Shown piece after piece: positions 1,634 through 62,754 of a stretch of 64,000 bases of DNA. Every line of letters starts with the position of its first letter. Positions within the stretch are counted from its first letter, which is position 1. Source of the DNA: an uncultured Chlorobiota bacterium (GTDB lineage Bacteria > Bacteroidota > Bacteroidia > Bacteroidales > JAADGE01); NCBI GenBank assembly GCA_947311445.1, contig CAMZKV010000008.1, forward strand, positions 5,145 to 69,144, given 5' to 3'. The notes beneath the pieces were generated by a model. The model saw only the letters and a list, made by a program, of their open reading frames with translations. It was not told where the DNA came from and ran no database searches. Made by a program: the position numbers and the translations under genes.

Positions 1634-4600
1634 ATGAAAAATTCAAACAAACTATATACAGCCCTAAAAAATAGAGTACTCGTTCTTGATGGTGCAATGG
1701 GAAGCCTTATTCAAACACACAAATTAGATGAAGCAGGTTTTCGTGGAGAAAGATTTAAAAATTGGCAGCTTGATTTAAAAGGCAACAATGACCTTCTTTC
1801 GTTAACTCAGCCACAAATTATAAAATCAATTCACACACAATATCTTGAAGCTGGTGCAGATATTATTGAAACTAACACCTTCAATGCAAACTTAATCTCA
1901 ATGGAAGATTATGATATGCACCAATACAAGCTGGTTTATGAAATGAACCTAAAATCTGCACAAATTGCCCGGGCTGTCTGTGATAAATTTTATGAAAAAA
2001 ATAAAAACAAATTTCGCTTTGTTGCAGGCTCAATTGGCCCAACAAATAAAACAGCATCAATGTCGCCAGATGTTGAAGACCCAGGCAAACGTGCAGTAAC
2101 TTTCGATGATGTTGTTGCAAGTTACACTCCACAAATAAAAGGTTTGCTCGATGGCGGTGCAGATATAATTCTTATTGAAACAGTTTTTGACACACTAATT
2201 GCAAAAGCTGCACTTTTTACAGTGCAAAAAGAAGCAAAAGAACGAAATATAACTATTCCAATTATGGTTTCAGGAACTGTTACCGACAAAAGCGGAAGAA
2301 CACTTTCCGGACAAACCGTAGGAGCATTTATAAGTTCTCTTTCGCATGTAGATTTGCTAACAATTGGGCTAAATTGCTCAACAGGAGCATCGGATATGCT
2401 ACCTCATATTGCCGAAATGTCAGAAAAATCTAACTTTAAAATTTCAGCACACCCAAATGCAGGAATGCCAAACCAGTTTGGAGAATATGATGAAACACCC
2501 AAAAAAATGGCTGTGGAAGTTAAGCAGTTTTTAGATAATTCTTATGTTAATATTATTGGAGGTTGTTGCGGAACCACACCGGAACATATTCACGAAATTG
2601 CAAAAATTGCCGAGAAATCTCATATTCATAAAGTTTCAGAAAAAGAAATAAAAAGTAAACTTAGCGGTTTAGAACTTTTAGAAATTAGTAAAGAAAATAA
2701 TTTTATAAATATTGGTGAACGCACAAATGTTGCAGGCTCATTAAAATTTGCAAGATTAATAAGAGAAAAAAAGTATGAAGAAGCACTAACTATTGCTAGG
2801 CAACAAGTTGAAAATGGTGCTCAAATTATTGATGTTTGCATGGACGATGCAATGCTTGACGCAGAAACTGAAATGATAACATTTCTTAACCTTTTAGTTT
2901 CAGAACCGGATATAGCAAAAGTGCCTATTATGATTGATAGTTCGAAGCATAATGTAATTATTGCAGGACTAAAATGTTTGCAAGGCAAAGCAATTGTAAA
3001 TTCCATAAGTTTAAAAGAAGGTGAAGAAACTTTTATTCAACACGCAAAAGAAATTCGCCAATATGGTGCAGCTGCCGTAGTTATGGCTTTTGACGAAAAT
3101 GGACAAGCAGCAACATATCAAGAAAAAATAGACATCTGTAAACGGGCTTATGACATTCTCACACAGAAAGTTAACTACCCACCACAAGATATTATTTTTG
3201 ACCCGAATATACTTACAATTGCAACAGGAATTGAGGAGCATAATAATTATGCTATTGATTTTATTGAAACAGTAAAATGGATTAAAAAACACTTGCCTTA
3301 TGCAAAAGTAAGTGGAGGAATTAGCAATCTATCTTTCTCATTTAGAGGCAATAATATAATTCGAGAAGCAATGCACTCTGTGTTTTTATATCATGCTGTA
3401 AAAGCAGGTTTAGATATGGGAATTGTAAATGCAGGAATGTTACAAATTTATGATGAAATACCGAAAGATTTATTGCAACTTACAGAGGATGTTATTTTTA
3501 ACAAAAGTAAAGATGCCACAGAAAAATTAATTGAATATGCTGAAACAGTAAAAAGTTCAGGAAAAAAAGAAAAAAAAATTGAAGATTGGCGGAAAAACCC
3601 TGTTGATGAGCGATTAAGCTATGCTTTGGTAAAAGGCATTACAGAATTTATTGATGAAGATGTAGAAGAAGCAAGGAAAAATTACAAACAAGCAATTAAT
3701 GTAATTGAGCAACCTTTAATGGCTGGAATGAATAAAGTAGGAAAACTTTTTGGAGATGGAAAAATGTTTCTTCCGCAAGTTGTAAAAAGCGCAAGAGTTA
3801 TGAAAAAAGCTGTTGCAATTCTTTTGCCATATATTGAAGCCGAAAAAGTTGAGGGAGAAAATAGTTCTGCCGGAAAAATTCTTTTGGCAACCGTTAAAGG
3901 CGATGTTCATGATATTGGGAAAAACATTACAGCTGTAATTTTAGCATGCAACAATTTTGAAATTATTGATTTGGGTGTTATGGTACATACCGAAAAAATA
4001 CTGGAAGAGGCTGAAAAACAAGATGTTGACATAATCGGTTTAAGCGGACTTATTACACCATCTTTGGAAGAAATGGTAAATGTTGCCAAAGAAATGCAAA
4101 AGCGAAAAATGAAAATGCCTCTGCTAATTGGAGGGGCAACAACTTCAAAAATTCACACTGCCGTGAAAATTGCACCGGAATATGATGGTGCTTCGATTTA
4201 TGTTGTAGATGCATCACAATCTGTGGGAATTACACAAAAACTAATTCAAAATAAAGATAATTTTATTGAAAATTTGAATGCAGAATATGAAAAAGTAAGA
4301 GAAAAACACGCTAACAAAAAAACAAAAAAATTAATTTCCTTGTCGGAAGCAAGAGAAAATAAATTTGTTACAAATTATAAAATTTCAAAACCTAACTTTA
4401 TAGGAATAAAAACTTTAAAAAATTTTCCTCTTGAAGAAATTTTACCATATTTCGATTGGACATTCTTTTTTCATGCTTGGGAAATAAAAGGAAGATTTCC
4501 TGAGATAACAGACCCTGCGGGTTTCCAAAACCCGCAGGGTCTGTCAGATGAAGACAGTCAAAACCCGCAGGGTCTTTCCCAAAAAGCAAAAGAAGCAAAA

Positions 4601-5368
4601 AAACTCTACGATGATGCACAAGAGATGCTAAAAAAAATAATTTCTAAAAAATGGCTTCAAGCAAATGCCGTAATAGGATTGTTTCCTGCAAACTCTGTTG
4701 GTGATGATATTGAAGTTTTTAATGAAGAAGGAAAAAAACTTACAACTTTTAGATTTTTAAGACAACAAAACAAAAAACAAAATAATAAACCCAACTTATG
4801 TCTTGCAGATTATATTGCTCCCAAAACAAGCAAAAAGCAAGATTACATAGGCACATTTGCCTTAACAACAGGACTTGGAATTGAGAAAAAGGTAAAAGAA
4901 TTTGAAGATGCAAATGATGATTATTCTGCAATAATGCTAAAAACTTTGGCAGATAGATTTGCAGAGGCTTTTGCCGAATTATTGCATAAAAAAGTTAGGA
5001 ATGAGTTTTGGGCTTATGCAGAAGAAGACCCTGCGGGTTTTAAAAACCCGCAGGGTCTGGCAGACTTATTTAAAGGAAAATATCAAGGAATACGCCCAGC
5101 AATTGGCTATCCTGCTTGTCCGGAGCATTCTGAAAAACGAGTTTTATTTGATTTATTAAATGCCGAAAAAAACACAGGAATGAGCCTAACAGAAAATTTT
5201 TCAATGTATCCGGGAGCATCAGTAAGTGGACTTTATTTAGCAAATTCTGAAGCAAAATATTTTAACTTAGGAAAAATTACAGAAGAACAAATTGAGGATT
5301 ATGCTGAAAGAAAAAAAATTAGCTTTGAACTTGCAGAAAAGTATTTGAGGAGCAATTTAGGATATTAA
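1634..5368 (+). CDS. metH: cobalamin-dependent methionine synthase
   Basis: 1244 aa with full MetH architecture: Hcy-binding (GGCCGTTP), pterin-binding, B12-binding (GDVHDIGKN), and activation domain ([14 protein letters not shown]). Confidence 0.95.
4509..4575. repeat. GC-rich palindromic element inside metH CDS (two arms plus an extra third arm)
   Basis: cagaccctgcgggttt (4509-4524), loop cca, aaacccgcagggtctg (4528-4543). Then a small hairpin ctgtc-agatgaa-gacag (4541-4557), then a repeated arm aaacccgcagggtct (4561-4575). Confidence 0.9.
5026..5058. repeat. second copy of the same palindrome inside metH CDS
   Basis: agaccctgcgggtttt (5026-5041), a, aaaacccgcagggtct (5043-5058). This is a 33-nt near-perfect palindrome in the same codon phase as the first copy. 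Confidence 0.9.
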
Positions 5369-9281: not shown

Positions 9282-10077
9282 AATGAATTTCTGTATTTAT
9301 TACTGTACCATTTTTTAAAGTAATTGTTTTTATAAGAATATTCTTATCGTTATAAATATAATGTTTGCCATCGATTAAAATACCGTTTTTAAAAAAACCC
9401 ATTTTTTCAGGAAGTTTATTTCTATTGTATAGGGTGTGTTTTCCGTTTCCAGAGAAAACAATAAGACTATCTTTTTTGTGTATTGTTTCATCTGTAAAAC
9501 TGCCTTCTAAAAACAATTTTGTTTCTTTAGGATTACATTTACCTGATTCAAAAAAACGATGAGATTTTAATAAGCCGGAATTGAAATATTCTTTAATTAA
9601 ACCAGATTCTTTTCCTTCTTCCCATTCTCCTTCTATTTTTACTATACCATTTTCATAGAAATATGCTTGATACCCACAACGAGAACCTTGGTCGTTATAG
9701 TTCCAAAGATATGAAAGTTTTCCGTTTGAGTAATAAGATTTATACATTCCTACCCATTTATCAACAATCCAAGTGCCTTCTTCTGCAATATTTCCATCTT
9801 CATAATATATTCTTGCATAACCTTTCTTTTCTCCGTTGAGGTATGTAATTTCAGACTTAATATTTTTGTTTGCATAATATGCCTTCCAAACACCTTCTTG
9901 TTTGTTGTTTAAAAAATTACCTTCTGTTCTTTTTTCTATATCTATCCAATATCCTTGTTTTAAACCGTTTGAATCTGTTACATTTACGGTATCTCCCTCA
10001 ATAACCTCTATGCTTTGGGCTTTTATGCTCGAAGCAAATAGAAAAAAAAGATATAATATAAATATAAATGATTTCAA
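9280..10077 (-). CDS. secreted MORN-variant repeat protein (YwqK-like family)
   Basis: Signal peptide (FLFASSIKAQ) followed by repeated G-x-W-x-x-YY-x-NG / G-x-x-x-G-x-x-x-x-YYE-xG units. Confidence 0.6.
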   Translation of the reverse strand: MKSFIFILYLFFLFASSIKAQSIEVIEGDTVNVTDSNGLKQGYWIDIEKRTEGNFLNNKQEGVWKAYYANKNIKSEITYLNGEKKGYARIYYEDGNIAEEGTWIVDKWVGMYKSYYSNGKLSYLWNYNDQGSRCGYQAYFYENGIVKIEGEWEEGKESGLIKEYFNSGLLKSHRFFESGKCNPKETKLFLEGSFTDETIHKKDSLIVFSGNGKHTLYNRNKLPEKMGFFKNGILIDGKHYIYNDKNILIKTITLKNGTVINTEIH

Positions 10078-18526: not shown

Positions 18527-18686
18527 AAGAAGAAACATTCTTGACAACTAGGAACATGACTATAAACTTGCACACAGGTAATTTGCAGAACAAAACAATA
18601 TTTGTAAATATAAAAACACAATAAACTTATAAATATAAATTAACTTTTAACTTTACATTTTCAAACTTTTAACTATTTTTAGACAC
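18527..18686 (+). repeat. conserved upstream module, copy E (most diverged)
   Basis: aggaacatgactataaacttgcacacaggtaatttgcagaacaaaacaa (from 18550) aligns with copies A-D. The 3' part aaattaacttttaactttacattttcaaacttttaactatttttagacacATG aligns with copy A. Confidence 0.7.
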
Positions 18687-25288: not shown

Positions 25289-26671
25289 CTATTTGTCAGA
25301 ACTAAACATTGGATCCCATGGCGGTAATAAAATAGGTTTTTGATTTAAAAAATTTAATGTTTTAGCATCTATAAATTTTTTCAAAACTACAAGGCGAAAC
25401 ATATATTCATCAAACCAAGCATCCGTCATTGTCAGATAACCATTGTGTCCGGAAGATTTACCCCAACTATTTTCAAGTAACCATTTGGTAATTTCTCCTT
25501 TTTCATTAACATCTGCACCAACTAAAGCCATTCCATGTGTTGAACCACTTTCACGAGATAAAATGCGTTCTCTCTTTGTCATATCAAATTTAACGCCAAA
25601 AAGTGATTCGTAGTCATAATTATTAATATCTAACAAACCTTCTTTACTGTTTAGTTGTTTTCCAACATCGCAAGAAAAATACATTGCTTCATTATTTTTG
25701 ATAGACTTGAGAGCAAATTTTTTGATTTCTTTTGCAGGTAAATTAATATACTGCCAGTTTCTTCCCTCCATTACATTTCTATCTTTATTGATTTCATACA
25801 GTTTATAATATTCTCTTGTCGGGTCATCCATTAACATGATATAATCATTGAAATTTATTTCTCCTATTGATTCTTTCATAAAAGATTTTGGGGTGTATTT
25901 TTTAAGAGAACTTATACTGTCTTTTTTGTCTTTATATCTCCATTCAAACTCTGTTGGGGGAACACCAAGATTGATTACTAATATTTTATATATTTCTCCC
26001 AACATTTTTATTTTATGTTTTCTTAAAACGGCATCTGTGCCTTTTATAGAACGTAATTCAAGAGCATCTTCTCTCAATTTTTTTCTAATAAGACGAACCA
26101 TCATTCCAGTGTTTTCGCTAGAATGAGTTTCGGGCATAATATCTTTCGGAACAATTCCATATTTGTTTGCTAAATTTATGAAAGAGTTCCATACGCCACC
26201 ATCCCCAATAGTGTTTTGGAACAACCAAGAAACATTTCTGTCTTCAATTTTTAAATTTCTAGTTTCAATAATTCCTTCAAGAAACATGTTTGATTTTTCA
26301 AAAATATCAAAGAAATATAAATAGTTTGTAGAATATTCAAAAGATGAAACATTGAAGTTTGAAATAGCTTTTGGTCTAAGAACGTTGAGGCTTGTAAACA
26401 TCCAACATCTGCCGGAAGACTTTTGGTTGGTTATTCCCTTTACTGATACTTTGTATTTGAATTCGTGGTCGTATTTACCAATATTATTTCTATTAAGAGC
26501 CAGGTTTTTTATGTTGTTATTTGAAACAGCATTTATAACTGCTCTTAGTTGTGAATCATTATTGTCAAAAGAATTTTTTATTTGAACGAATTCTCTTTTG
26601 CCTATTCCTTTTTGTCCTGTTACAGAAAGAGAAAAAAGAATTATAATCAAAATTACTATTATTTTGTTCAT
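25289..26671 (-). CDS. pepC: C1B family cysteine aminopeptidase (PepC/bleomycin hydrolase-like), exported
   Basis: QKSSGRCWMFTSLN catalytic Cys block, THGMALVG His block, ENSWG Asn block. The start is set at the ATG at 26671, which begins a signal peptide (MNKIIVILIIILFSLSVTGQ). Confidence 0.82.
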   Translation of the reverse strand: MNKIIVILIIILFSLSVTGQKGIGKREFVQIKNSFDNNDSQLRAVINAVSNNNIKNLALNRNNIGKYDHEFKYKVSVKGITNQKSSGRCWMFTSLNVLRPKAISNFNVSSFEYSTNYLYFFDIFEKSNMFLEGIIETRNLKIEDRNVSWLFQNTIGDGGVWNSFINLANKYGIVPKDIMPETHSSENTGMMVRLIRKKLREDALELRSIKGTDAVLRKHKIKMLGEIYKILVINLGVPPTEFEWRYKDKKDSISSLKKYTPKSFMKESIGEINFNDYIMLMDDPTREYYKLYEINKDRNVMEGRNWQYINLPAKEIKKFALKSIKNNEAMYFSCDVGKQLNSKEGLLDINNYDYESLFGVKFDMTKRERILSRESGSTHGMALVGADVNEKGEITKWLLENSWGKSSGHNGYLTMTDAWFDEYMFRLVVLKKFIDAKTLNFLNQKPILLPPWDPMFSSDK

Positions 26672-26843
26672 ATGTCTAAAGTTGTATATTTGATTGATAT
26701 TTAATGAGTTGACAGAATATTTATATTTGCAAAAGTTGTTTTGCTTAGTACATAGTAACACCACTTTGTCTTGCAAGTAATCTGTATGTTCTGTTATGGT
26801 TAAGCTCAAGGCTGTTAAAATTTTTGTCTTGTTTGTTTCATAG
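26672..26843 (-). repeat. conserved upstream module, copy B
   Basis: The minus strand reads ctatgaaacaaacaagacaaaaatttt...ccataacagaacatacagattacttgcaagacaaagtggtgttactatgtactaag...actttagacatATG, which aligns with copies A, C, D and E. Confidence 0.7.
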
Positions 26844-30468: not shown

Positions 30469-31197
30469 TTAAAAATTTAAATTTCGAATATCTAATAAAA
30501 CATCTCTGAAACTATCATAATTTTGGATTATTTTTAAAAGATTAATTGCAGTTTCTTCCGGACTTGAAAGTTTGTTGTTTTTCTTTAAATCAACAAACTT
30601 TTTAAGTTCAGAAAAATCATTAACAGAAGATGTTCTAATTTGATTCTGCATAGCCGTATCAACAACACCTGGAGCAACAGAAAATATGTTAATTCTATTC
30701 AATTTAGGGTAAAAAGATTGTTCAAGATTTATATTTTCACTAAACATATCTAATGCAGATTTGGATGCACAATAAACACTCCACGCATCAATAGTATGCC
30801 TTCCTGCTCCGGAACTAACATTTAATATTATTCGTTTGTTTGTGTAAGGTTGATATTTTTTAATAAAATTATTTATTAAAATACTTGGAGAAAGAATATT
30901 CACATTATAATCATTAATTATTTCTGTGGTTTTTAACTTTCCAACTCTTTTTATTTTAGAAATAACTCCCGAATTATTGATTAAAATAATATCACTTGCA
31001 TTTTCAATGTTAGGAAAAAATATACTTTCAGTATCTTCTAAATTAGATAAGTCTGTTGTTATATGATTATAGTTTTTATGATTTAATGTGTTTTTTCTGG
31101 AAATGCCAATAACTTTATTGTTTTCGTCTTTAAGAAGTTCTTCTGCCAAAGATTTTCCAATTCCTTTGCTTGTGCCTGTAATAAAATAATGTTTCAT
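30469..31197 (-). CDS. short-chain dehydrogenase/reductase (SDR)
   Basis: TGTSKGIGK, NNSG, YCASKSAL (YxxxK), APGVVDT. Confidence 0.8.
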   Translation of the reverse strand: MKHYFITGTSKGIGKSLAEELLKDENNKVIGISRKNTLNHKNYNHITTDLSNLEDTESIFFPNIENASDIILINNSGVISKIKRVGKLKTTEIINDYNVNILSPSILINNFIKKYQPYTNKRIILNVSSGAGRHTIDAWSVYCASKSALDMFSENINLEQSFYPKLNRINIFSVAPGVVDTAMQNQIRTSSVNDFSELKKFVDLKKNNKLSSPEETAINLLKIIQNYDSFRDVLLDIRNLNF

Positions 31198-31367
31198 GTT
31201 TCTAAAAAAGTTAAAAATTTGAAAGTGAAAAGTGAAAAGTTAATTTACACTTGTAATTTTTTAAGCACTGCACATAGGAACACTTGTTTTTTCTGCAAGT
31301 AATATGTGCGCAGGCTGATAGTCATGTCCTTGGGTGTAAAAATATTTGTTGTGGGAGTTTTGCATAG
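31198..31367 (-). repeat. conserved upstream module, copy A
   Basis: The minus strand reads ctatgcaaaactcccacaacaaatatttttacacccaaggacatgactatcagcctgcgcacatattacttgcagaaaaaacaagtgttcctatgtgcag...aaattaacttttcacttttcactttcaaatttttaacttttttagaaacATG. Confidence 0.75.
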
Positions 31368-31567
31368 CTGAGCCTTTGGGTTCAAGAGTCTAATTTGTTG
31401 GGCTTAATTTGTTGCCGAAATGTTTGACTTTATAATAGCTGGGTTTTGGTTTTAAAAAAACGACAAATATAACACAATTTATAGGGCAATTTAATATTTT
31501 TACAAAAAGGATTGCTTGGTTAAATAGTTTTTGCGAATCTATGAGACAAATACTATTTAGTTTTTAT

Positions 31568-41050: not shown

Positions 41051-41211
41051 ATGAAACACCCACGACAAATATCTTACACCAAAGATAACCCTGTATACCG
41101 TTGCCTTGCAGAAAAAAGCAAGTGTTCCTATGTGCAGAATAACACATTTATTATAAATACAAAAATTAAAGTAACTAACTCAATGTAAATTAATTAGAAA
41201 ATTTTAGACAC
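41051..41211 (+). repeat. conserved upstream module, copy C
   Basis: atgaaacacccacgacaaatatcttacaccaaagataaccctgtataccgttgccttgcagaaaaaagcaagtgttcctatgtgcag...gtaaattaattagaaaattttagacacATG. Differs from copy A by a single 1-nt indel across the cttgcag...tgtgcag block. Confidence 0.75.
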
Positions 41212-41547
41212 ATGAAAACAGAAAATGTAAAAGCTCAAATGAGAAAAGGTGTTCTTGAATTTTGCACACTATCAATACTATCCGGAGGATATGCATATAC
41301 TTCTGACATTATTAAAGAACTTAAAGAAGCAGAGTTGATTATAGTTGAAGGAACACTTTACCCACTACTAACGAGACAAAAAAATGCAGGTCTTTTAAGT
41401 TATAAATGGGAAGAATCAACACAAGGACCTCCTCGAAAATATTATATTTTAACAGAAAAAGGAGAGTCTGTTTTAAAAGAGTTAGATAATTCTTGGAATA
41501 ATTTAACCCATTCTGTTGAAAAGATAAGAAAAACAAAACGAGGATAA
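41212..41547 (+). CDS. PadR family transcriptional regulator
   Basis: 111 aa; winged-helix blocks LEFCTLSIL, GTLYPLLTRQKNAGLL, PRKYYILTEKG. Confidence 0.85.
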   Translation: MKTENVKAQMRKGVLEFCTLSILSGGYAYTSDIIKELKEAELIIVEGTLYPLLTRQKNAGLLSYKWEESTQGPPRKYYILTEKGESVLKELDNSWNNLTHSVEKIRKTKRG

Positions 41548-42233: not shown

Positions 42234-42488
42234 TTTTTAGAAATCTCCCTTTAATAAAAAAACAATTTTAATATTTGGGTTTTAAAACAAGTTTCTATCA
42301 AAAAAACAAACAATAAAATTTTTTAAATACTAAACTTTATATATTTTTGAAAAAAAGACATATATTGTTAAATGAGAGCATAAAAAGTTATTCAGTTGAT
42401 TTGATTTCATATAAAAACTATATGTTTATAAGGGGAAGACACGAAAATTAACCCGATTAAAATCATATAATTATAAAATTTAACTTAC

Positions 42489-43913
42489 GTGAAAATATCT
42501 GTAAAAAAAGCTATAATAAAACTTCTCGATAGACCGGAAATAAAAAATATAGAACAATTAGCAGAAGAGGTTAAAAAACTTTCTGGTTCTAAGTGGAACA
42601 CAAAACAAATAAAAAACTTCATTGAAAAACTTCTTATAGAAAATTATGATTATTCAGATTATTTGATAAAAGAAAACGGGAAACTATGTAGAAAAGCATT
42701 TCTATTTGCAAAAACAAAGTTTAAAATTAAACTTACTGAAAAAGAAATAGAGGAAAAACAACTTGTAATCGGACATAGATTTATACCCTTTATTTCAAAT
42801 AATACTTTGCTAAAAGATATTATACTCTTTGATTCAAATGGAAAAAAAATAAAAAAAATAAAACAAAACATAAATTTTGCTGATGTCGAGACATATCTTT
42901 CTTTTTATGATTTAGCACAAATTACATATTTGCAAGATGTTGAAGGTGAAACTGTAATCGCAAGTTGTTTTGATTTAAATCAATGGTTTGACGAAAACGA
43001 ATTTACTCCATACGATTATATTCAAATACAAGTTCTTGACTTTTACAAAAGTGAATTTAAAATTGAAAAAATAGAAAGTAGAGATTATAATACTAAAAAA
43101 TTAGTTTTTGACAAGAGAGATACAGAACTGGAAAATGCAATTTTAGAAATAATACAAACAGAAGACATGCCATCTGTTGTTTATCAATTGCTTTTTTATG
43201 CCTATGCAGAACTAAACATGGAAACAATAAAGGAAACTGGCTCTCCGTTGTCAATTTTTATAAATACAAGCGAAAAATTTAACTTGGAAAATATTTCAGG
43301 AATACCTTTTTTAGTTAAAGAAGGAACAACATTACATGAAAGATTTGCAGAGGTGGAATTGCCGGAACCAGGCAAAGCAAAAAATTTAAATGGGATTTTT
43401 AGAGAATTGGGCTATAGTTTTTCTGAAAATTTTGTTATAGCATTAATAATTCAGCAAATAAAAACAAAAGGAAAAATTAATATTGATAAAATAATATCAA
43501 TAATTTTGAAAACAGAATATGATTTTATTAACCAAAAACAAGCCAAAAATTTTGAAAAAGCATTCAATAAAGTTTTAAAAACTACAATAAAAAAATGGAC
43601 AAATATTAGAATTAATAAGTATGTACTTTGGCTTCTTGAAATAAGTATAGATATTCAAAAAAACACAAATAAATTGCTTCGAGCAACTGATAAATTTTTA
43701 AATACGAACCCGCATTTAGTTGAAAGTTTCGATTATTCTATTCTTGACACATACAGACCAATTGAATTGTCGGCAGAAGAAATGATAACTTTTATTGTAG
43801 AAAGCAAGGCAAAAATACCCGCAAAAGAAGCGAAAAAAATTGCAGAACAACTTGCAGATGTTTTAGAAGACATAAAGTTTGAAATTAAAGAAATTATTGA
43901 AAGTTATTCATAA
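42489..43913 (+). CDS. hypothetical protein (GTG start)
   Basis: Long uninterrupted ORF of 474 aa with no internal Met for the first approx. 230 residues. No motif recognised. Confidence 0.4.
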   Translation: MKISVKKAIIKLLDRPEIKNIEQLAEEVKKLSGSKWNTKQIKNFIEKLLIENYDYSDYLIKENGKLCRKAFLFAKTKFKIKLTEKEIEEKQLVIGHRFIPFISNNTLLKDIILFDSNGKKIKKIKQNINFADVETYLSFYDLAQITYLQDVEGETVIASCFDLNQWFDENEFTPYDYIQIQVLDFYKSEFKIEKIESRDYNTKKLVFDKRDTELENAILEIIQTEDMPSVVYQLLFYAYAELNMETIKETGSPLSIFINTSEKFNLENISGIPFLVKEGTTLHERFAEVELPEPGKAKNLNGIFRELGYSFSENFVIALIIQQIKTKGKINIDKIISIILKTEYDFINQKQAKNFEKAFNKVLKTTIKKWTNIRINKYVLWLLEISIDIQKNTNKLLRATDKFLNTNPHLVESFDYSILDTYRPIELSAEEMITFIVESKAKIPAKEAKKIAEQLADVLEDIKFEIKEIIESYS

Positions 43914-54627: not shown

Positions 54628-56406
54628 ATGTCAAATTTAAAAAGAACAATAAACTTTTACATTTTAAAAACAAGCCGATTATCCAGTAGAAACCTTTTGC
54701 TAATACTTAGCCTGCTTACCGGTTTAGTTTCTGGAAGTTTGGCCTTGCTATTAAAAAACGGAGTATATTTTTTGCGGAATATATTAGTTGACGAAAGCAA
54801 GTTCGATATAAAAAATTATTTTTTTTTAATTTATCCGATTATTGGAATAACATTAACTGTACTTTTGAAAAAATATGTCATAAAAGATATGACAAATCAC
54901 AATATTACTGCCATTTTGGATGCAATAGCAAAAAGAGGCAGCAAAATGAAAGCACATAAAATATTTTCTTCCTTAACCGGAGGAATGTTAACAGCAGGGT
55001 TTGGAGGATCAATTGGTTTAGAGTCTCCAATTATTTCAACAGGAGCAGCACTAGGCTCTCGTTTGGGTGTTTTGTTTAAAGCTGACTATAAAACGGTAAC
55101 ACTACTTATTGCCTGTGGTTCGGCAGGAGCAATAGCTGCAATTTTTAATACGCCCATTGCCGGAGTAATATTTGCTCTTGAAGTTTTGCTTATAGATTTT
55201 AGCAGATTTTCATTAATTCCTTTACTTGTTGCATCTGTTAGCGGAGCAATAATTCCTCGTGTTTTTTCAAATCCTGAAGTATTATTTAATATTGATGTTC
55301 TTGATAAGTTTAACTTGTCAGATATACCTTTTTTTATATTATTTGGAATAATTTCAGGAGCTCTATCATATTATTTCACAGACATTTTCTTTTTCATAAA
55401 AAAAAGATTTCTTAAAATAAAAAAAAACAAAAACCGACTATTGGTCGGAAGTGTTTTGTTAGGAGTTTTAATTTTTATTTTCCCTCCTTTATTTGGTGAG
55501 GGTTTTAATACCATACGACTAATACTTTCAGGAAATGTTTATAGAATTATAGATAATTCAATCTTTCATTCTATTGATAGAAATGCTTTCGTTTTGATTG
55601 TTTTTTTTCTTTTTTTGGTTATAACTAAAGTTTTTGCCGTAGGAATAACTATAGGTTCAGGTGGAGTAGGAGGGATTTTTGCTCCATCATTATTTATGGG
55701 AGCTGCTTTCGGCTTTATTTTTGCCCATACAATAAATGTTTTTGATATCGGAATACATCTTTCGGAAAGAAACTTTGCTTTTGTTGGTATGGCTGCAATG
55801 TTGGGAGGAATATTACAAGCACCACTAACAGGAATTTTTATGATTATAGAAATAACGGTTGGTTATGAGCTTATTGTTCCTCTTATGTTAACAACTACTG
55901 TTAGTTATATAATATCAAAATCTTTGGAGCCAAATTCAATCTTCACAAAAGAATTAGCGATGGAGGGAAGTTTAATAACACATAATAAAGATGATGCTGT
56001 TCTGAATTTTATGGAACTTAACAATATTATAGAAAGTGATTTTGTTGAAATTCATCCGGAAGATAGTTTGCGTGAAATTATAAAAGCTGTTTCTAAATCT
56101 AAAAGAAATATTTTCCCTGTAATTGATAGTGAAAAAAAACTTTTTGGGATTTTGCTTTTAGACGATATTAGAGAAATTATGTTCAATAAAGAGTATTATG
56201 ACAACACTTATGCACATGATTTAATGCAAATACCGCCAGCAGTTATAAAGAAAACAGATAAAATGAAATCTGTTATAAATAAGTTTAATAAAACAAATTC
56301 TTGGAATTTACCTGTAATAGAATACGGAAAATATATAGGTTTTGTATCAAAATCAAGAATGTTTAATGAGTACAGAAAACATTTAGTAAATATTTCACAT
56401 GAATAA
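54628..56406 (+). CDS. ClC family chloride channel/antiporter with C-terminal CBS pair
   Basis: GFGGSIGLESP (gating Glu present), GVIFALE, GGIFAPS, then two CBS-like repeats. Confidence 0.85.
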   Translation: MSNLKRTINFYILKTSRLSSRNLLLILSLLTGLVSGSLALLLKNGVYFLRNILVDESKFDIKNYFFLIYPIIGITLTVLLKKYVIKDMTNHNITAILDAIAKRGSKMKAHKIFSSLTGGMLTAGFGGSIGLESPIISTGAALGSRLGVLFKADYKTVTLLIACGSAGAIAAIFNTPIAGVIFALEVLLIDFSRFSLIPLLVASVSGAIIPRVFSNPEVLFNIDVLDKFNLSDIPFFILFGIISGALSYYFTDIFFFIKKRFLKIKKNKNRLLVGSVLLGVLIFIFPPLFGEGFNTIRLILSGNVYRIIDNSIFHSIDRNAFVLIVFFLFLVITKVFAVGITIGSGGVGGIFAPSLFMGAAFGFIFAHTINVFDIGIHLSERNFAFVGMAAMLGGILQAPLTGIFMIIEITVGYELIVPLMLTTTVSYIISKSLEPNSIFTKELAMEGSLITHNKDDAVLNFMELNNIIESDFVEIHPEDSLREIIKAVSKSKRNIFPVIDSEKKLFGILLLDDIREIMFNKEYYDNTYAHDLMQIPPAVIKKTDKMKSVINKFNKTNSWNLPVIEYGKYIGFVSKSRMFNEYRKHLVNISHE

Positions 56407-58222
56407 ATTAAATATAAAAATAGAAGTATCTAATCTGTTTTCTAAAAGAAAGTTGCATTATTATTCATTTAAATTACTAAAATGGAGAATTAAACATTTA
56501 CCAGATAAACAATTTATTATGATTTTGTCGGTAGTTGTTGGATTGTTATCCGGAATAACTGCATTTTTAATTAAGGGAGCAGTACATTTAATTCAATTAC
56601 TTTTAAAGAGTCCTTTTTTTGAAGACACACGTTATTTTCTCTACATTATTTTTCCTGCCATAGGAATTTTTTTAACAGTAATTTTTATTAAATATCTTAT
56701 TAAAAAGAAAGTTGAACATGGCATTCCCGGAGTGCTTTATGCTATTTCAAAAAAACATGGTTTTATAAAAACTCACAATCTTTTTTCATCAATTATTACA
56801 AGTGCTTTTACTGTTGGATTTGGTGGCTCTGTTGGACTAGAAGGTCCTACGGTTGCAACAGGAGCGGCATACGGTTCCGGGCTTGGCAAAATATTCCATT
56901 TAAGTTACAAACAAAGAATTTTATTGCTTGGAGCAGCTGCGGCAGGAGCAATGTCTGCAATTTTTAAGGCTCCATTGGCAGGTGTTGTTTTCGCATTGGA
57001 AGTGATAATGATTGATCTTACTATATACACAGTAACACCTATTTTAATTTCCTCTGTAACAGGAGCTTTAACATCTTATTTTCTTTTTGGCTTGGGAGTA
57101 ATATATCCTTTTGAGTTAAAAACTGCTTTTATAATGAGTGATTTGCCTTATTATATAATTTTGGGTATTTTAACAGGTCTAATTGCTGCATATTTTACAA
57201 AAATATACATATTTATAGAAAAACAATTTTCCAAAATTAAAAGAAACTATTTAAAATTATTTGTAGGAGCAATTATGCTTGGTGTCTTAATTTACTTTTT
57301 CCCGTTTTTTTATGGCGAAGGTTACGAAGTAACGAATACTGCATTGCATGGTAGCTATTCCTATCTTCACGACAATCATATTTTTGGCAGCTTTTCAGAT
57401 AGCCAATTTGTTATATTAATTTTATTTCTTGTAATTATTTTTTTTAAGGTTGTTGCGACATCAATAACATTTGGAGCCGGAGGTATTGGCGGCATTTTTG
57501 CACCAACACTTTTTACGGGTGCAAACATAGGTTTGTTTTTTACTTTTCTAATGAGCATGATTGGAGTTAATTCTCTATCAAAAGAAAATTTTGCAATGGT
57601 TGGTATGGCAGGAATGATTGCCGGAGTTTTACACGCTCCTCTTACAGCAATTTTTTTAATTGGGGATTTAACAGGCGGATACGGGCTTTTTATTCCGCTT
57701 ATGGTTGTTTCTACAATATCTTTTGCAACTGTTAGAATATTTCATAAAAACTCTGTTTACACGATACAACTTGCAAAAAGAGGAGAATTAATGACTCATC
57801 ACAAAGACAAAAATGTTCTGTCTATGATGAAAATTAATAAACTTATTGAAAAAAACTTTTACATTTTACAACCGGAGAGTACTTTAAAGGAAATAAAAGA
57901 CGCGTTTATAAAATCTGAAAGAAATATTTTTCCAGTTGTTGATGAAGATACTAATTTTTTGGGAATAATAACTATTGCAAACCTTAAAGATGTTATTTTT
58001 AATGAAGAAAAATATGAAACTATTTTTGCGAGTAATTTAATGTTTAAACCTTTAACTCATATTGAATTGTCTGACAATATGGAGGATATTGCACAAAAAA
58101 TTCAAAAAAGCGGATTATTTAATGTTGTTGTTTTAAATAAAGGGAAGTATGTAGGCTTTGTATCAAGAGCAAATGTGTTTTCTTCATACAGACGTTTGTT
58201 AAAACGTTTTTCCGATTACTAA
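56399..58222 (+). CDS. ClC family chloride channel/antiporter with C-terminal CBS pair (tandem paralogue)
   Basis: GFGGSVGLEGP, GVVFALE, GGIFAPT, then a CBS pair. The start overlaps the upstream stop (ATGAATAA). Confidence 0.85.
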   Translation: MNKLNIKIEVSNLFSKRKLHYYSFKLLKWRIKHLPDKQFIMILSVVVGLLSGITAFLIKGAVHLIQLLLKSPFFEDTRYFLYIIFPAIGIFLTVIFIKYLIKKKVEHGIPGVLYAISKKHGFIKTHNLFSSIITSAFTVGFGGSVGLEGPTVATGAAYGSGLGKIFHLSYKQRILLLGAAAAGAMSAIFKAPLAGVVFALEVIMIDLTIYTVTPILISSVTGALTSYFLFGLGVIYPFELKTAFIMSDLPYYIILGILTGLIAAYFTKIYIFIEKQFSKIKRNYLKLFVGAIMLGVLIYFFPFFYGEGYEVTNTALHGSYSYLHDNHIFGSFSDSQFVILILFLVIIFFKVVATSITFGAGGIGGIFAPTLFTGANIGLFFTFLMSMIGVNSLSKENFAMVGMAGMIAGVLHAPLTAIFLIGDLTGGYGLFIPLMVVSTISFATVRIFHKNSVYTIQLAKRGELMTHHKDKNVLSMMKINKLIEKNFYILQPESTLKEIKDAFIKSERNIFPVVDEDTNFLGIITIANLKDVIFNEEKYETIFASNLMFKPLTHIELSDNMEDIAQKIQKSGLFNVVVLNKGKYVGFVSRANVFSSYRRLLKRFSDY

Positions 58223-62560: not shown

Positions 62561-62725
62561 ATTTATAAAACTTCTAATTATCTTGTAATGAGCAGATTGC
62601 TTTAATGTTTGTGTTTAAAATAATTATGTTGTTCTGCACATATAAAACCTTACTTTGTTCTGAAAGTAATTGGTTTGTGATAATATAGTTATGCCTTAAA
62701 ATGTAATTTTTTTGTTTCTTTTATG
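62561..62725 (-). repeat. conserved upstream module, copy D
   Basis: The minus strand reads cataaaagaaacaaaaaaattacattttaaggcataactatattatcacaaaccaattactttcagaacaaagtaaggttttatatgtgcagaac...gataattagaagttttataaatATG. Confidence 0.7.
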
Positions 62726-62754
62726 CCTAAATTCAAGTATTAAAAAAAATGATT

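Follow-up and report, generated by a model that had tools for sequence, protein, structure and literature searches.

A repeat family of one uncultured Bacteroidota lineage that probably inserted in gene sense at ATGAAA start codons

Introduction

Why would unrelated genes of one bacterium share the same stretch of upstream DNA, always in the sense of the gene and always running up to its start codon? The question is raised by a 64-kb stretch of contig CAMZKV010000008.1 from an uncultured Chlorobiota bacterium of the Bacteroidota (G+C, 29%), which is called the window here, its own genome being W. An earlier note on this DNA had listed five intergenic modules of this kind and read them as a shared promoter followed by a structured 5' leader, with a family of small-RNA genes or a promoter-carrying miniature element as alternatives. 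Among these, the miniature element turned out to be the best fit, because relatives carry filled and empty sites and the insertion lies exactly at ATGAAA starts. We conclude, with a probability of about 0.6, that the modules are copies of a lineage-restricted, non-autonomous repeat whose insertions lie in gene sense and fall precisely on ATGAA(A) start codons. Judged by the comparison with related genomes, the unit looks like a small mobile 5'-leader cassette and not like an ancient regulatory RNA.

Results

The five window copies (A to E in Table 1) were homologous from end to end when aligned with MAFFT, with a mean column identity of 71%. A hidden Markov model (HMM) of the five copies, run with nhmmer, matched only these five in the 64 kb (E = 9e-37 to 2.5e-28; runner-up, E = 0.7), and leave-one-out HMMs recovered every omitted copy (E = 2e-8 to 2e-17), with the best match outside the family at E of at least 0.18. 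An independent repeat search found the pair C/D over 100 nt at 75% identity and the pair A/E over 57 nt at 84% and 54 nt at 74%. The alignment and both kinds of HMM bear out the claim that the five stretches form one family. The orientation lock held in all five copies as well: each lies in the sense of the downstream gene, and its 3' end is at the ATG of that gene. The genes behind copies A to E encode, in this order, an SDR protein, PepC (a C1 peptidase), a PadR regulator, an M64 peptidase and an M1 peptidase with a sorting domain of the type IX secretion system (T9SS). The string TTTAGAMAYATG is found at four of the five copy-abutted start codons and nowhere else in the window.

The unit is ~120-175 nt long and consists of a moderately G+C-richer core, which is able to form a nested hairpin, and an A/T-rich, poorly structured tail ending in ...TTTAGACAC. 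Its edges read ATGAAA-CACCCACGAC... at the 5' side and ...TTTAGACAC-ATGAAA at the 3' side; the 5' hexamer is called the relic start below. In copy A, the core is followed by an A/T-rich tail of the type found in copy E, which ends in TTTTAGAAAC directly 5' of the SDR ATG (31195-31197). The relic ATG of copy B opens an upstream open reading frame (ORF) of eight codons, MKQTRQKF and a stop, which is followed by the core and by a tail ending in TTTAGACAT ahead of an ATGAAC start (ATG, 26669-26671). Copy C has core and tail, the latter ending in TTTAGACAC, and then the ATG at 41212. The earlier note had divided the modules into six blocks (1 to 6 from the 5' side); of these, copy E has no recognisable block 5 and the 5' end of copy D is degenerate.

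A pattern scan of genomes, one per species, detected real copies solely in CAMZKL01 ('uncultured Chlorobi bacterium RB_MAG_00012'; genome M), which shows synteny with the window and 92-96% nucleotide identity to it. A third close genome is JBPMQK01 (genome J). About 240 kb of W, M and J were covered, much of it located by searching for the motif itself. In total, the family occupies 12 gene loci in these three genomes, in gene sense at 12/12 and ending at the start codon at 12/12. A sixth unit of W (copy F) precedes the gene of a T9SS CHU_C protein. M adds units before gcvT, pntA and the genes for a secreted AhpC/TSA protein and a Peripla_BP_2 lipoprotein, and also before the gene of a 446-aa signal-peptide protein without Pfam match and before one gene of no assigned identity. 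That the modules lie between co-directional genes is true of all five window copies but is no rule of the family, because the gene upstream of pntA is divergent and two modules at locus L018 stand before divergent genes.

Outside these genomes, a pattern scan of metagenomes gave 17 stretches, all of them chance matches by HMM; a scan of viral contigs gave no copy, and BLAST of one unit against plasmid and phage records gave no match. In 64 kb from four related organisms, nhmmer and a covariance model of the core found zero copies. Such a model had been proposed in the earlier note; it was run on the core but added no copy beyond those found by nhmmer. Rfam returned nothing at the gathering score over the whole window and nothing relevant at E <= 10 for copy A or at E <= 1 for the L008 dimer, so that no known family such as Flavo-1, which the earlier note had considered, was matched. 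A known Rfam RNA family was accordingly rejected as an identity for the unit, as those searches gave just a SAM riboswitch and a tRNA elsewhere. The family is confined to one uncultured Bacteroidota lineage with three closely related genomes.

We compared occupied loci with the orthologous sites of relatives. At gcvT of M, the stop codon and terminator hairpin of the gap gene are followed by ...AAAAAAAAC, then ATGAAA, then CACTCACGAC...unit...TTTAGACAC, then ATGAAATACACA; over a longer stretch, the 3' junction reads TTTAGACAC and then ATGAAATACACAAAA. Two relatives, represented by L045 (82% nucleotide identity) and by L044 of genome O (87% GcvT identity), have the same gap-terminator-gcvT layout and no module, and an A-rich leader runs straight into the start (L045, ...ACAAACA and then ATGAAATACAC; O, ...AAACTA and then ATGAAATACAC). 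At pntA, W has a perfect -7 box TAATTTTG, one ~70-nt tail and ATGAAAGTT, and in M and J, that box is followed by tail, ATGAAA, core, another tail and ATGAAAGTT, the two tails being identical in their final 42 nt. A relative with 85% PntA identity has neither core nor tail before pntA. In O, the pepC orthologue (78% amino-acid identity) is preceded by a terminator and a promoter-like box, and by no module. Empty sites with a single ATGAAA are thus available at gcvT and pntA, and the comparison of filled with empty sites at gcvT, pntA and pepC shows that the unit was inserted precisely at the start codon and is bordered by ATGAAA at either edge.

The relic ATGAAA is intact in 7 units, mutated in 3 (ATGCAA, ATGAAT, ATGACG), degenerate in D and E and absent in the L003 unit. 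A short flanking direct repeat of the kind known from MITEs (miniature inverted-repeat transposable elements) is therefore present, seven units having ATGAAA at either edge. Target genes start with ATGAA in 11/12 cases versus 21/50 of the window ORFs (p ~7e-5). ATGAAA occurs in the window 12 times at start codons, 8 times elsewhere in intergenic DNA and 112 times inside genes; units occupy 4/12 of the start codons, 0/8 of the other intergenic sites and 0 of those inside genes. If selection alone acted among tolerated ATGAAA sites, 12/12 at start codons would have p ~0.002 (0.6^12), which implies either a further specificity or a positive benefit. The enrichment of peptidases and secreted proteins among the target genes may come from the Met-Lys start that is typical of signal peptides.

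Units have also come and gone between close genomes. B, C and D are the same units in W and M, with cores 94-97% and tails 87-96% identical (copy C is 94-96% identical to its M orthologue). At SDR and at M1, the unit of W is not that of M: core and tail identities are 65% and 35% (SDR) and 49% and 56% (M1) vs flanks at 92-96%; copy F was left out of this comparison, as M has deleted 2.4 kb there. The core of copy A is 80% identical to the M copy at L018 (ahpC) versus 65% to the orthologous M copy, and its tail is 69% identical to copy E versus 35% to the orthologous M copy. The W SDR unit and the M AhpC unit moreover share a CCAAAGGCTCAG 5' extension, and the tail of the W SDR unit is closest to that of W's own M1 unit. 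The SDR locus of W holds an old solo tail together with the new unit. This solo tail (31386-31449), which the earlier description had missed, is 68% identical to the tail of M at that locus (shuffles, 53 +/- 3%) and gives weak HMM matches. At the M1 locus, M and J have a different, short-form unit; block 5 is missing from these M1 copies and from L018b, apparently lost between two flanking TGCAGA direct repeats. Units have recently been gained and exchanged, after W and M diverged, and the tandem, solo-tail and swapped states are consistent with several rounds of insertion at one ATGAAA and later recombination from tail to tail.

The mechanism that we propose would run as follows. The unit would insert in gene sense at an ATGAA(A) start, leaving the old ATGAAA at its 5' edge, and an ATGAAA start would be regenerated at its 3' edge, so that the unit would become the proximal 5' leader of the gene. 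The native promoter or the upstream gene would be the source of at least part of the transcription. Translation begun at the relic ATG would, in most intact copies, run into a stop after 4-8 codons, and the tail would give an open initiation region for the working ATG. Re-insertion at an occupied site would produce the order tail-ATGAAA-core-tail-ATGAAA, and recombination between tails would leave solo tails or swap units. Such insertions would be tolerated through the regenerated start codon, the stop in translation from the old start and the open leader supplied.

Several observations weigh against this interpretation. The ~240 kb were sampled largely by way of the motif, so that unseen copies at other positions could exist. 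The ends of the unit have neither terminal inverted repeats nor subterminal hairpins: in four units, the 5' 40 nt matched the reverse complement of the 3' 40 nt no better than shuffles did, and as DNA, the 5' 60 nt (z = +0.23) and the 3' 79 nt (z = +1.60) form no hairpin, the sole hairpin being central. Because neither feature was found, no known transposition chemistry can be assigned. A Pfam search of nearly all window ORFs gave no transposase, integrase or reverse transcriptase; in the loci covered, no transposase, recombinase, reverse transcriptase or autonomous partner lies near any copy, and no related autonomous insertion sequence (IS) with the same ends was seen in the ~240 kb. The ATGAAA at the edges could be microhomology used in template switching and need not be a target duplication. 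Loss in the relatives is possible too, as a precise deletion between ATGAAA repeats would leave a clean empty site, and the conservation of B, C and D is about that of their flanks, which leaves sequence constraint possible. On the interpretation preferred here, the insertion would be an enzymatic process, specific for site and orientation.

An explanation that we regard as unlikely, although it stands ahead of the other rivals, is a cis-regulatory cassette kept for its function, with a promoter in block 1 and a structured leader of ~120-130 nt, which would define a regulon of peptide and amino-acid catabolism. The downstream genes, with three peptidases, GcvT, PntA, the PadR regulator and secreted or T9SS proteins, would suit such a regulon, but the ATGAAA (Met-Lys) target is by itself enough to explain the bias towards secreted proteins. 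For the promoter, the evidence points elsewhere. Ordinary genes of the window have TAnnTTTG boxes 15-40 nt ahead of the ATG, and perfect boxes stand 5' of the units at SDR (31464-31471), L003 and pntA. The box in block 1, which the earlier note had called degenerate and read as a possible shared promoter, has at most one mismatch in few copies (in A and D only among the window copies) and differs in nearly every copy, so that a shared block-1 promoter is not supported. The box TATATTTG at 31464-31471 is likely to be the native SDR promoter. At gcvT of M there is no TAnnTTTG box upstream of the unit, and a promoter carried by the unit itself is possible where such a box is missing, as the cassette would have it. 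Matches of sigma-70 type were no commoner than in shuffles, in a scan that did not include Bacteroidota-type promoters. Readings of the conserved blocks as sigma-54, extracytoplasmic function (ECF)-type or PadR-operator sites were dropped by eye, as the spacings do not fit.

No intrinsic-terminator-like site was found in or after any of the five window copies, and the unit would therefore be part of the leader of the downstream gene and not a separate small-RNA gene. Since canonical boxes lie upstream at three loci and no terminator lies inside, the unit is most likely a transcribed leader.

The structural part of the cassette fared no better. Most copies can be folded as a nested hairpin, with P1 (~GCAYA/UGUGC) around P2 (CUUGC/GCAAG) and z between -0.8 and -2.5, and this recurrence speaks for a function. 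However, in an alignment of 15 copies, 79.2% of the cells pair versus 78.1 +/- 1.3% in shuffles, and the covariation score is 0.179 versus 0.180, a test of low power on related sequences. By the same alignment, the changes in the 3' strand of the hairpin in B, A(M) and F are uncompensated, and RNAalifold predicted no structure from the raw MAFFT alignment. Block 5 has been deleted in two copies and is degenerate in E. A conserved structured leader, as the earlier note had proposed, is not supported by these data. An alternative pairing, AGCAUUA/UAAUGCU, was seen in L014 and rejected as not common to other copies. Two further observations would suit the cassette, namely the 94-97% conservation of B, C and D between W and M, and the weak structure of the tail with the start region, whose minimum free energy (MFE) is ~-3.1 kcal/mol on average versus -5.8 kcal/mol in control genes; in most copies, this region is also less stable than its own shuffles. 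Against it, the relatives have no member of the family, and their orthologous genes have ordinary promoters.

The sequence of the unit otherwise looks like one in neutral decay in an A/T-rich genome. Substitutions are mostly from G/C to A/T, with A sites changed at 0.156 per site per sequence versus 0.222-0.273 for G or C sites. Mutagenesis as in diversity-generating retroelements was rejected for the same reason: there are no adenine-specific substitutions, and A sites change less than G or C. A small protein was rejected as well; the frames from the relic ATG and from an ATG in block 2 are broken by indels and stop at differing places, and since the reading frames are not conserved, the unit is non-coding. 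The upstream ORF from the relic ATG stops after 4-8 codons in most intact units, and in the B, F and gcvT units its stop (TGA or TAA) is codon 9, in block 1.

Somewhat less probable than the cassette are errors of host replication or recombination, in which template switching or gene conversion through ATGAAA microhomology and the tails would have spread the unit, with selection keeping the insertions at start codons. The junction identity is just 6 nt, and neither terminal inverted repeats nor a transposase were seen, as would be expected of such errors; the 42-nt-identical tails at pntA in M and the likeness of tails within a genome suggest conversion. Insertion-tolerant ATGAAA sites are, moreover, already ~60% start codons (12/20 in the window). 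Nonetheless, the same sharp boundaries on both sides at twelve independent loci are many for illegitimate events, 12/12 at start codons by selection alone has the low p given above, and naive first insertions (gcvT, pepC, PadR, F, L014) had no tail homology to recombine with.

It is improbable that the leader was ancestral in the clade and was lost from the relatives by precise deletion between the flanking ATGAAA repeats. Direct repeats of 6 nt that lie 170 nt apart can mediate precise deletion, and the solo tails show that deletions occur, but independent clean losses would be needed at gcvT (in two relatives), pepC and pntA, every copy would have had to go from the 64 kb of the four related organisms too, and W and M each gained units after their split. 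A family of small-RNA genes that lie upstream of genes by chance can practically be dismissed: conserved sequence, a possible hairpin and one orientation would suit it, but there is no terminator-like site in or after the five copies, the A/T-rich tail reaches the ATG, Rfam and covariation give nothing, and small-RNA genes would not need to abut start codons exactly.

Table 1. Coordinates of the repeat units and associated features in the window
Feature	Position	Strand	Basis or remark
Copy A, newer unit, before SDR gene	31198-31367	-	MAFFT, HMM, leave-one-out
Relic start of copy A, ATGCAA	31360-31365	-	Read from sequence
5' extension CCCAAAGGCTCAG, subfamily-specific	31368-31380	-	Common to copy A and the L018 copy of M
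Older solo tail, SDR locus	31381-31449	-	Homologous to the tail of the single module of M there
Mutated relic start TTGAAC, end of the SDR solo tail	31380-31385	-	
Perfect Bacteroidota -7 box TATATTTG	31464-31471	-	5' of both SDR units; kept in M and J
Predicted nested hairpin of copy A, P1 CUGCGCA/UGUGCAG around P2 ACUUG/CAAGU	31268-31313	-	MFE folds
Copy B, before pepC (peptidase C1)	26672-26841	-	HMM
Relic start of copy B, ATGAAA	26836-26841	-	
Copy C, before PadR gene	41051-41211	+	HMM; relic ATGAAA at 41051-41056
Copy D, before peptidase M64 gene	62561-62725	-	HMM
Degenerate remnant 5' of copy D, ...TTGAATTTAGGCAT, similar to the end of an older tail	62726-62750	-	Read from sequence
Copy E, before peptidase M1/T9SS-sorted gene	18527-18686	+	HMM; block 5 degenerate
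Candidate solo tail before GTG-start ORF (42489-43913)	42430-42488	+	Weak match

Another remnant may exist at 42430-42488. A tail-like sequence, ...ATAATTATAAAATTTAACTTAC, directly precedes the GTGAAA start of an ORF without Pfam match, and the tail HMM gives E = 0.04, a weak value, on the M orthologue of this stretch (L013, 3730-3780); this could be one more solo tail, with GTG in place of a former ATG.

Two gene calls run into the repeat unit. The pepC ORF was called at 25289-26809 (-), with 506 aa and a TTG start, and the CHU_C gene (L041, 5210-8344, -) was called at 1044 aa and extended upstream into the unit; the real starts of both are the ATGs abutted by the units. In genome O, a perfect TATATTTG -7 box lies in the loop of the gap terminator hairpin (L044, ~9940-9975), just 5' of gcvT, so that terminator and promoter overlap between these genes; the corresponding hairpins of M and L045 have no such box.

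The genomes differ in other ways around these loci. Between the genes for LPG synthase and SDR, M and J have ~1 kb that is not in W (L039, 4120-5300, versus window 31450-31567), and this stretch holds fragments of a Por_Secre_tail ORF. M is without 2.4 kb that is present in W (L041, 6091-8468, versus L046, 19316-19366) and comprises the 5' part of the CHU_C gene and copy F, and it has three extra genes (LysR, Sulf_transp, Cons_hypoth698) after pntB (L046, 13583-16562). The 2.4-kb loss and the three extra genes indicate high local plasticity between genomes that are 90-97% identical.

Elsewhere in the window, a SAM riboswitch (Rfam RF00162, 84.5 bits; 1517-1620, +) lies directly 5' of metH (1634-5368). 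The part of the metH frame that encodes the activation domain contains perfect palindromes rich in G+C, AGACCCTGCGGGTTTyMAAAACCCGCAGGGTCT, at 4509-4542 and 5026-5059 (+), with a half copy at ~4562-4577 (+), in a genome of 29% G+C. These look like in-frame palindromic insertions, comparable to the Rickettsia palindromic elements. Two tandem paralogous CLC chloride-channel/CBS genes at 54628-58222 (+) explain a 130-nt direct repeat, D1 (71% identical).

Discussion

The known class that comes closest to this unit is that of putative mobile promoters (PMPs), non-coding stretches that are homologous to each other although the genes downstream of them, within one genome, are not (Matus-Garcia, Nijveen, van Passel 2012; PMC3575422). 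PMPs are usually unlinked to known IS elements, their way of moving is unexplained and they may carry regulatory RNA; their operational definition is an identity of at least 80% over at least 50 nt between -150 and -50, and specifies no insertion site (PMC3575422). Like PMPs, our unit is homologous upstream DNA before unrelated genes. When the strict window of -150 to -50 is set aside, the A/E tails reach that identity (84% over 57 nt), and the L008, L007 and L018 cores are 78-80% identical over ~100 columns. Unlike PMPs, the unit has exact boundaries (relic ATGAAA and regenerated start) and documented empty sites, and its promoter seems to be mostly native.

MITEs and other small intergenic repeats with regulatory side-effects (Correia, ERIC, RUP, REPIN) are non-coding, multicopy and lineage-restricted, are often co-transcribed and have short direct repeats at their edges; for MITEs, the targets are short and common, TA being an example, and either orientation occurs. 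Our unit is like them in its size, its copy number and the direct repeat that flanks it, and differs in that it lacks terminal inverted repeats, takes a single orientation to the gene and has its fixed place at the start codon. A similar safe-harbour logic is known from group IIC introns, whose homing sites lie directly behind intrinsic terminators or in attC sites: the element takes one orientation at a landmark of the transcription unit, leaves the host gene intact and is transcribed. The landmark of our unit is, in contrast, the start codon, and at ~170 nt it has neither intron structure nor an Rfam match.

With the IS200/IS605 elements and their palindrome-associated derivatives, and with the IS110/IS1111 elements, the unit has in common that classical terminal inverted repeats are missing, that it takes one orientation beside a short target and that tandem placement is possible when the end of the element recreates the target. 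The palindrome-associated derivatives of IS200/IS605 insert in one orientation 3' of a fixed target of 4-5 nt; what is seen here could equally well come from insertion after ATGAA(A) of an element with ATGAAA as its end, or from a 6-bp duplication. IS110/IS1111 elements are described in one published account as guided by seekRNA or bridge RNA (PMC11187229). Unlike IS200/IS605, the unit has no subterminal hairpins at its ends, and the covered loci have no TnpA or TnpB gene; the targets of IS110/IS1111 measure ~11-14 nt versus just the ATGAAA shared here, and the covered loci have no DEDD transposase gene. We claim membership in neither group, as their defining features were not shown. Riboswitches, T-boxes and Flavo-1 leaders are likewise in sense orientation in the 5' leader near the start codon and recur before unrelated genes. 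They are, however, conserved across genera with covariation, and this family, found in three close genomes, has neither property.

Our literature search found no bacterial repeat described as targeting start codons. We put forward tentatively, and with less confidence than the insertion itself, that the unit represents a new targeting class: a miniature element without terminal inverted repeats that homes to ATGAAA start codons in gene sense. The duplicated or regenerated start, the built-in stop for the old frame and the unstructured leader would then together make the start codon a safe harbour.

In practice, such repeats mislead gene callers into extending ORFs and can be mistaken for riboswitch-like leaders. 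If homing to start codons is true, it would raise the question of which enzyme recognises ATGAAA at gene starts only. The element would act as a natural device for exchanging the 5' untranslated regions of many genes while leaving the genes intact; the genes rewritten in this way would be those initiated with Met-Lys, many of which encode secreted proteins. Bacteroidota lack Shine-Dalgarno-led initiation. Homing of this kind would bear on how selfish DNA finds safe sites and on fast rewiring of post-transcriptional control in Bacteroidota.

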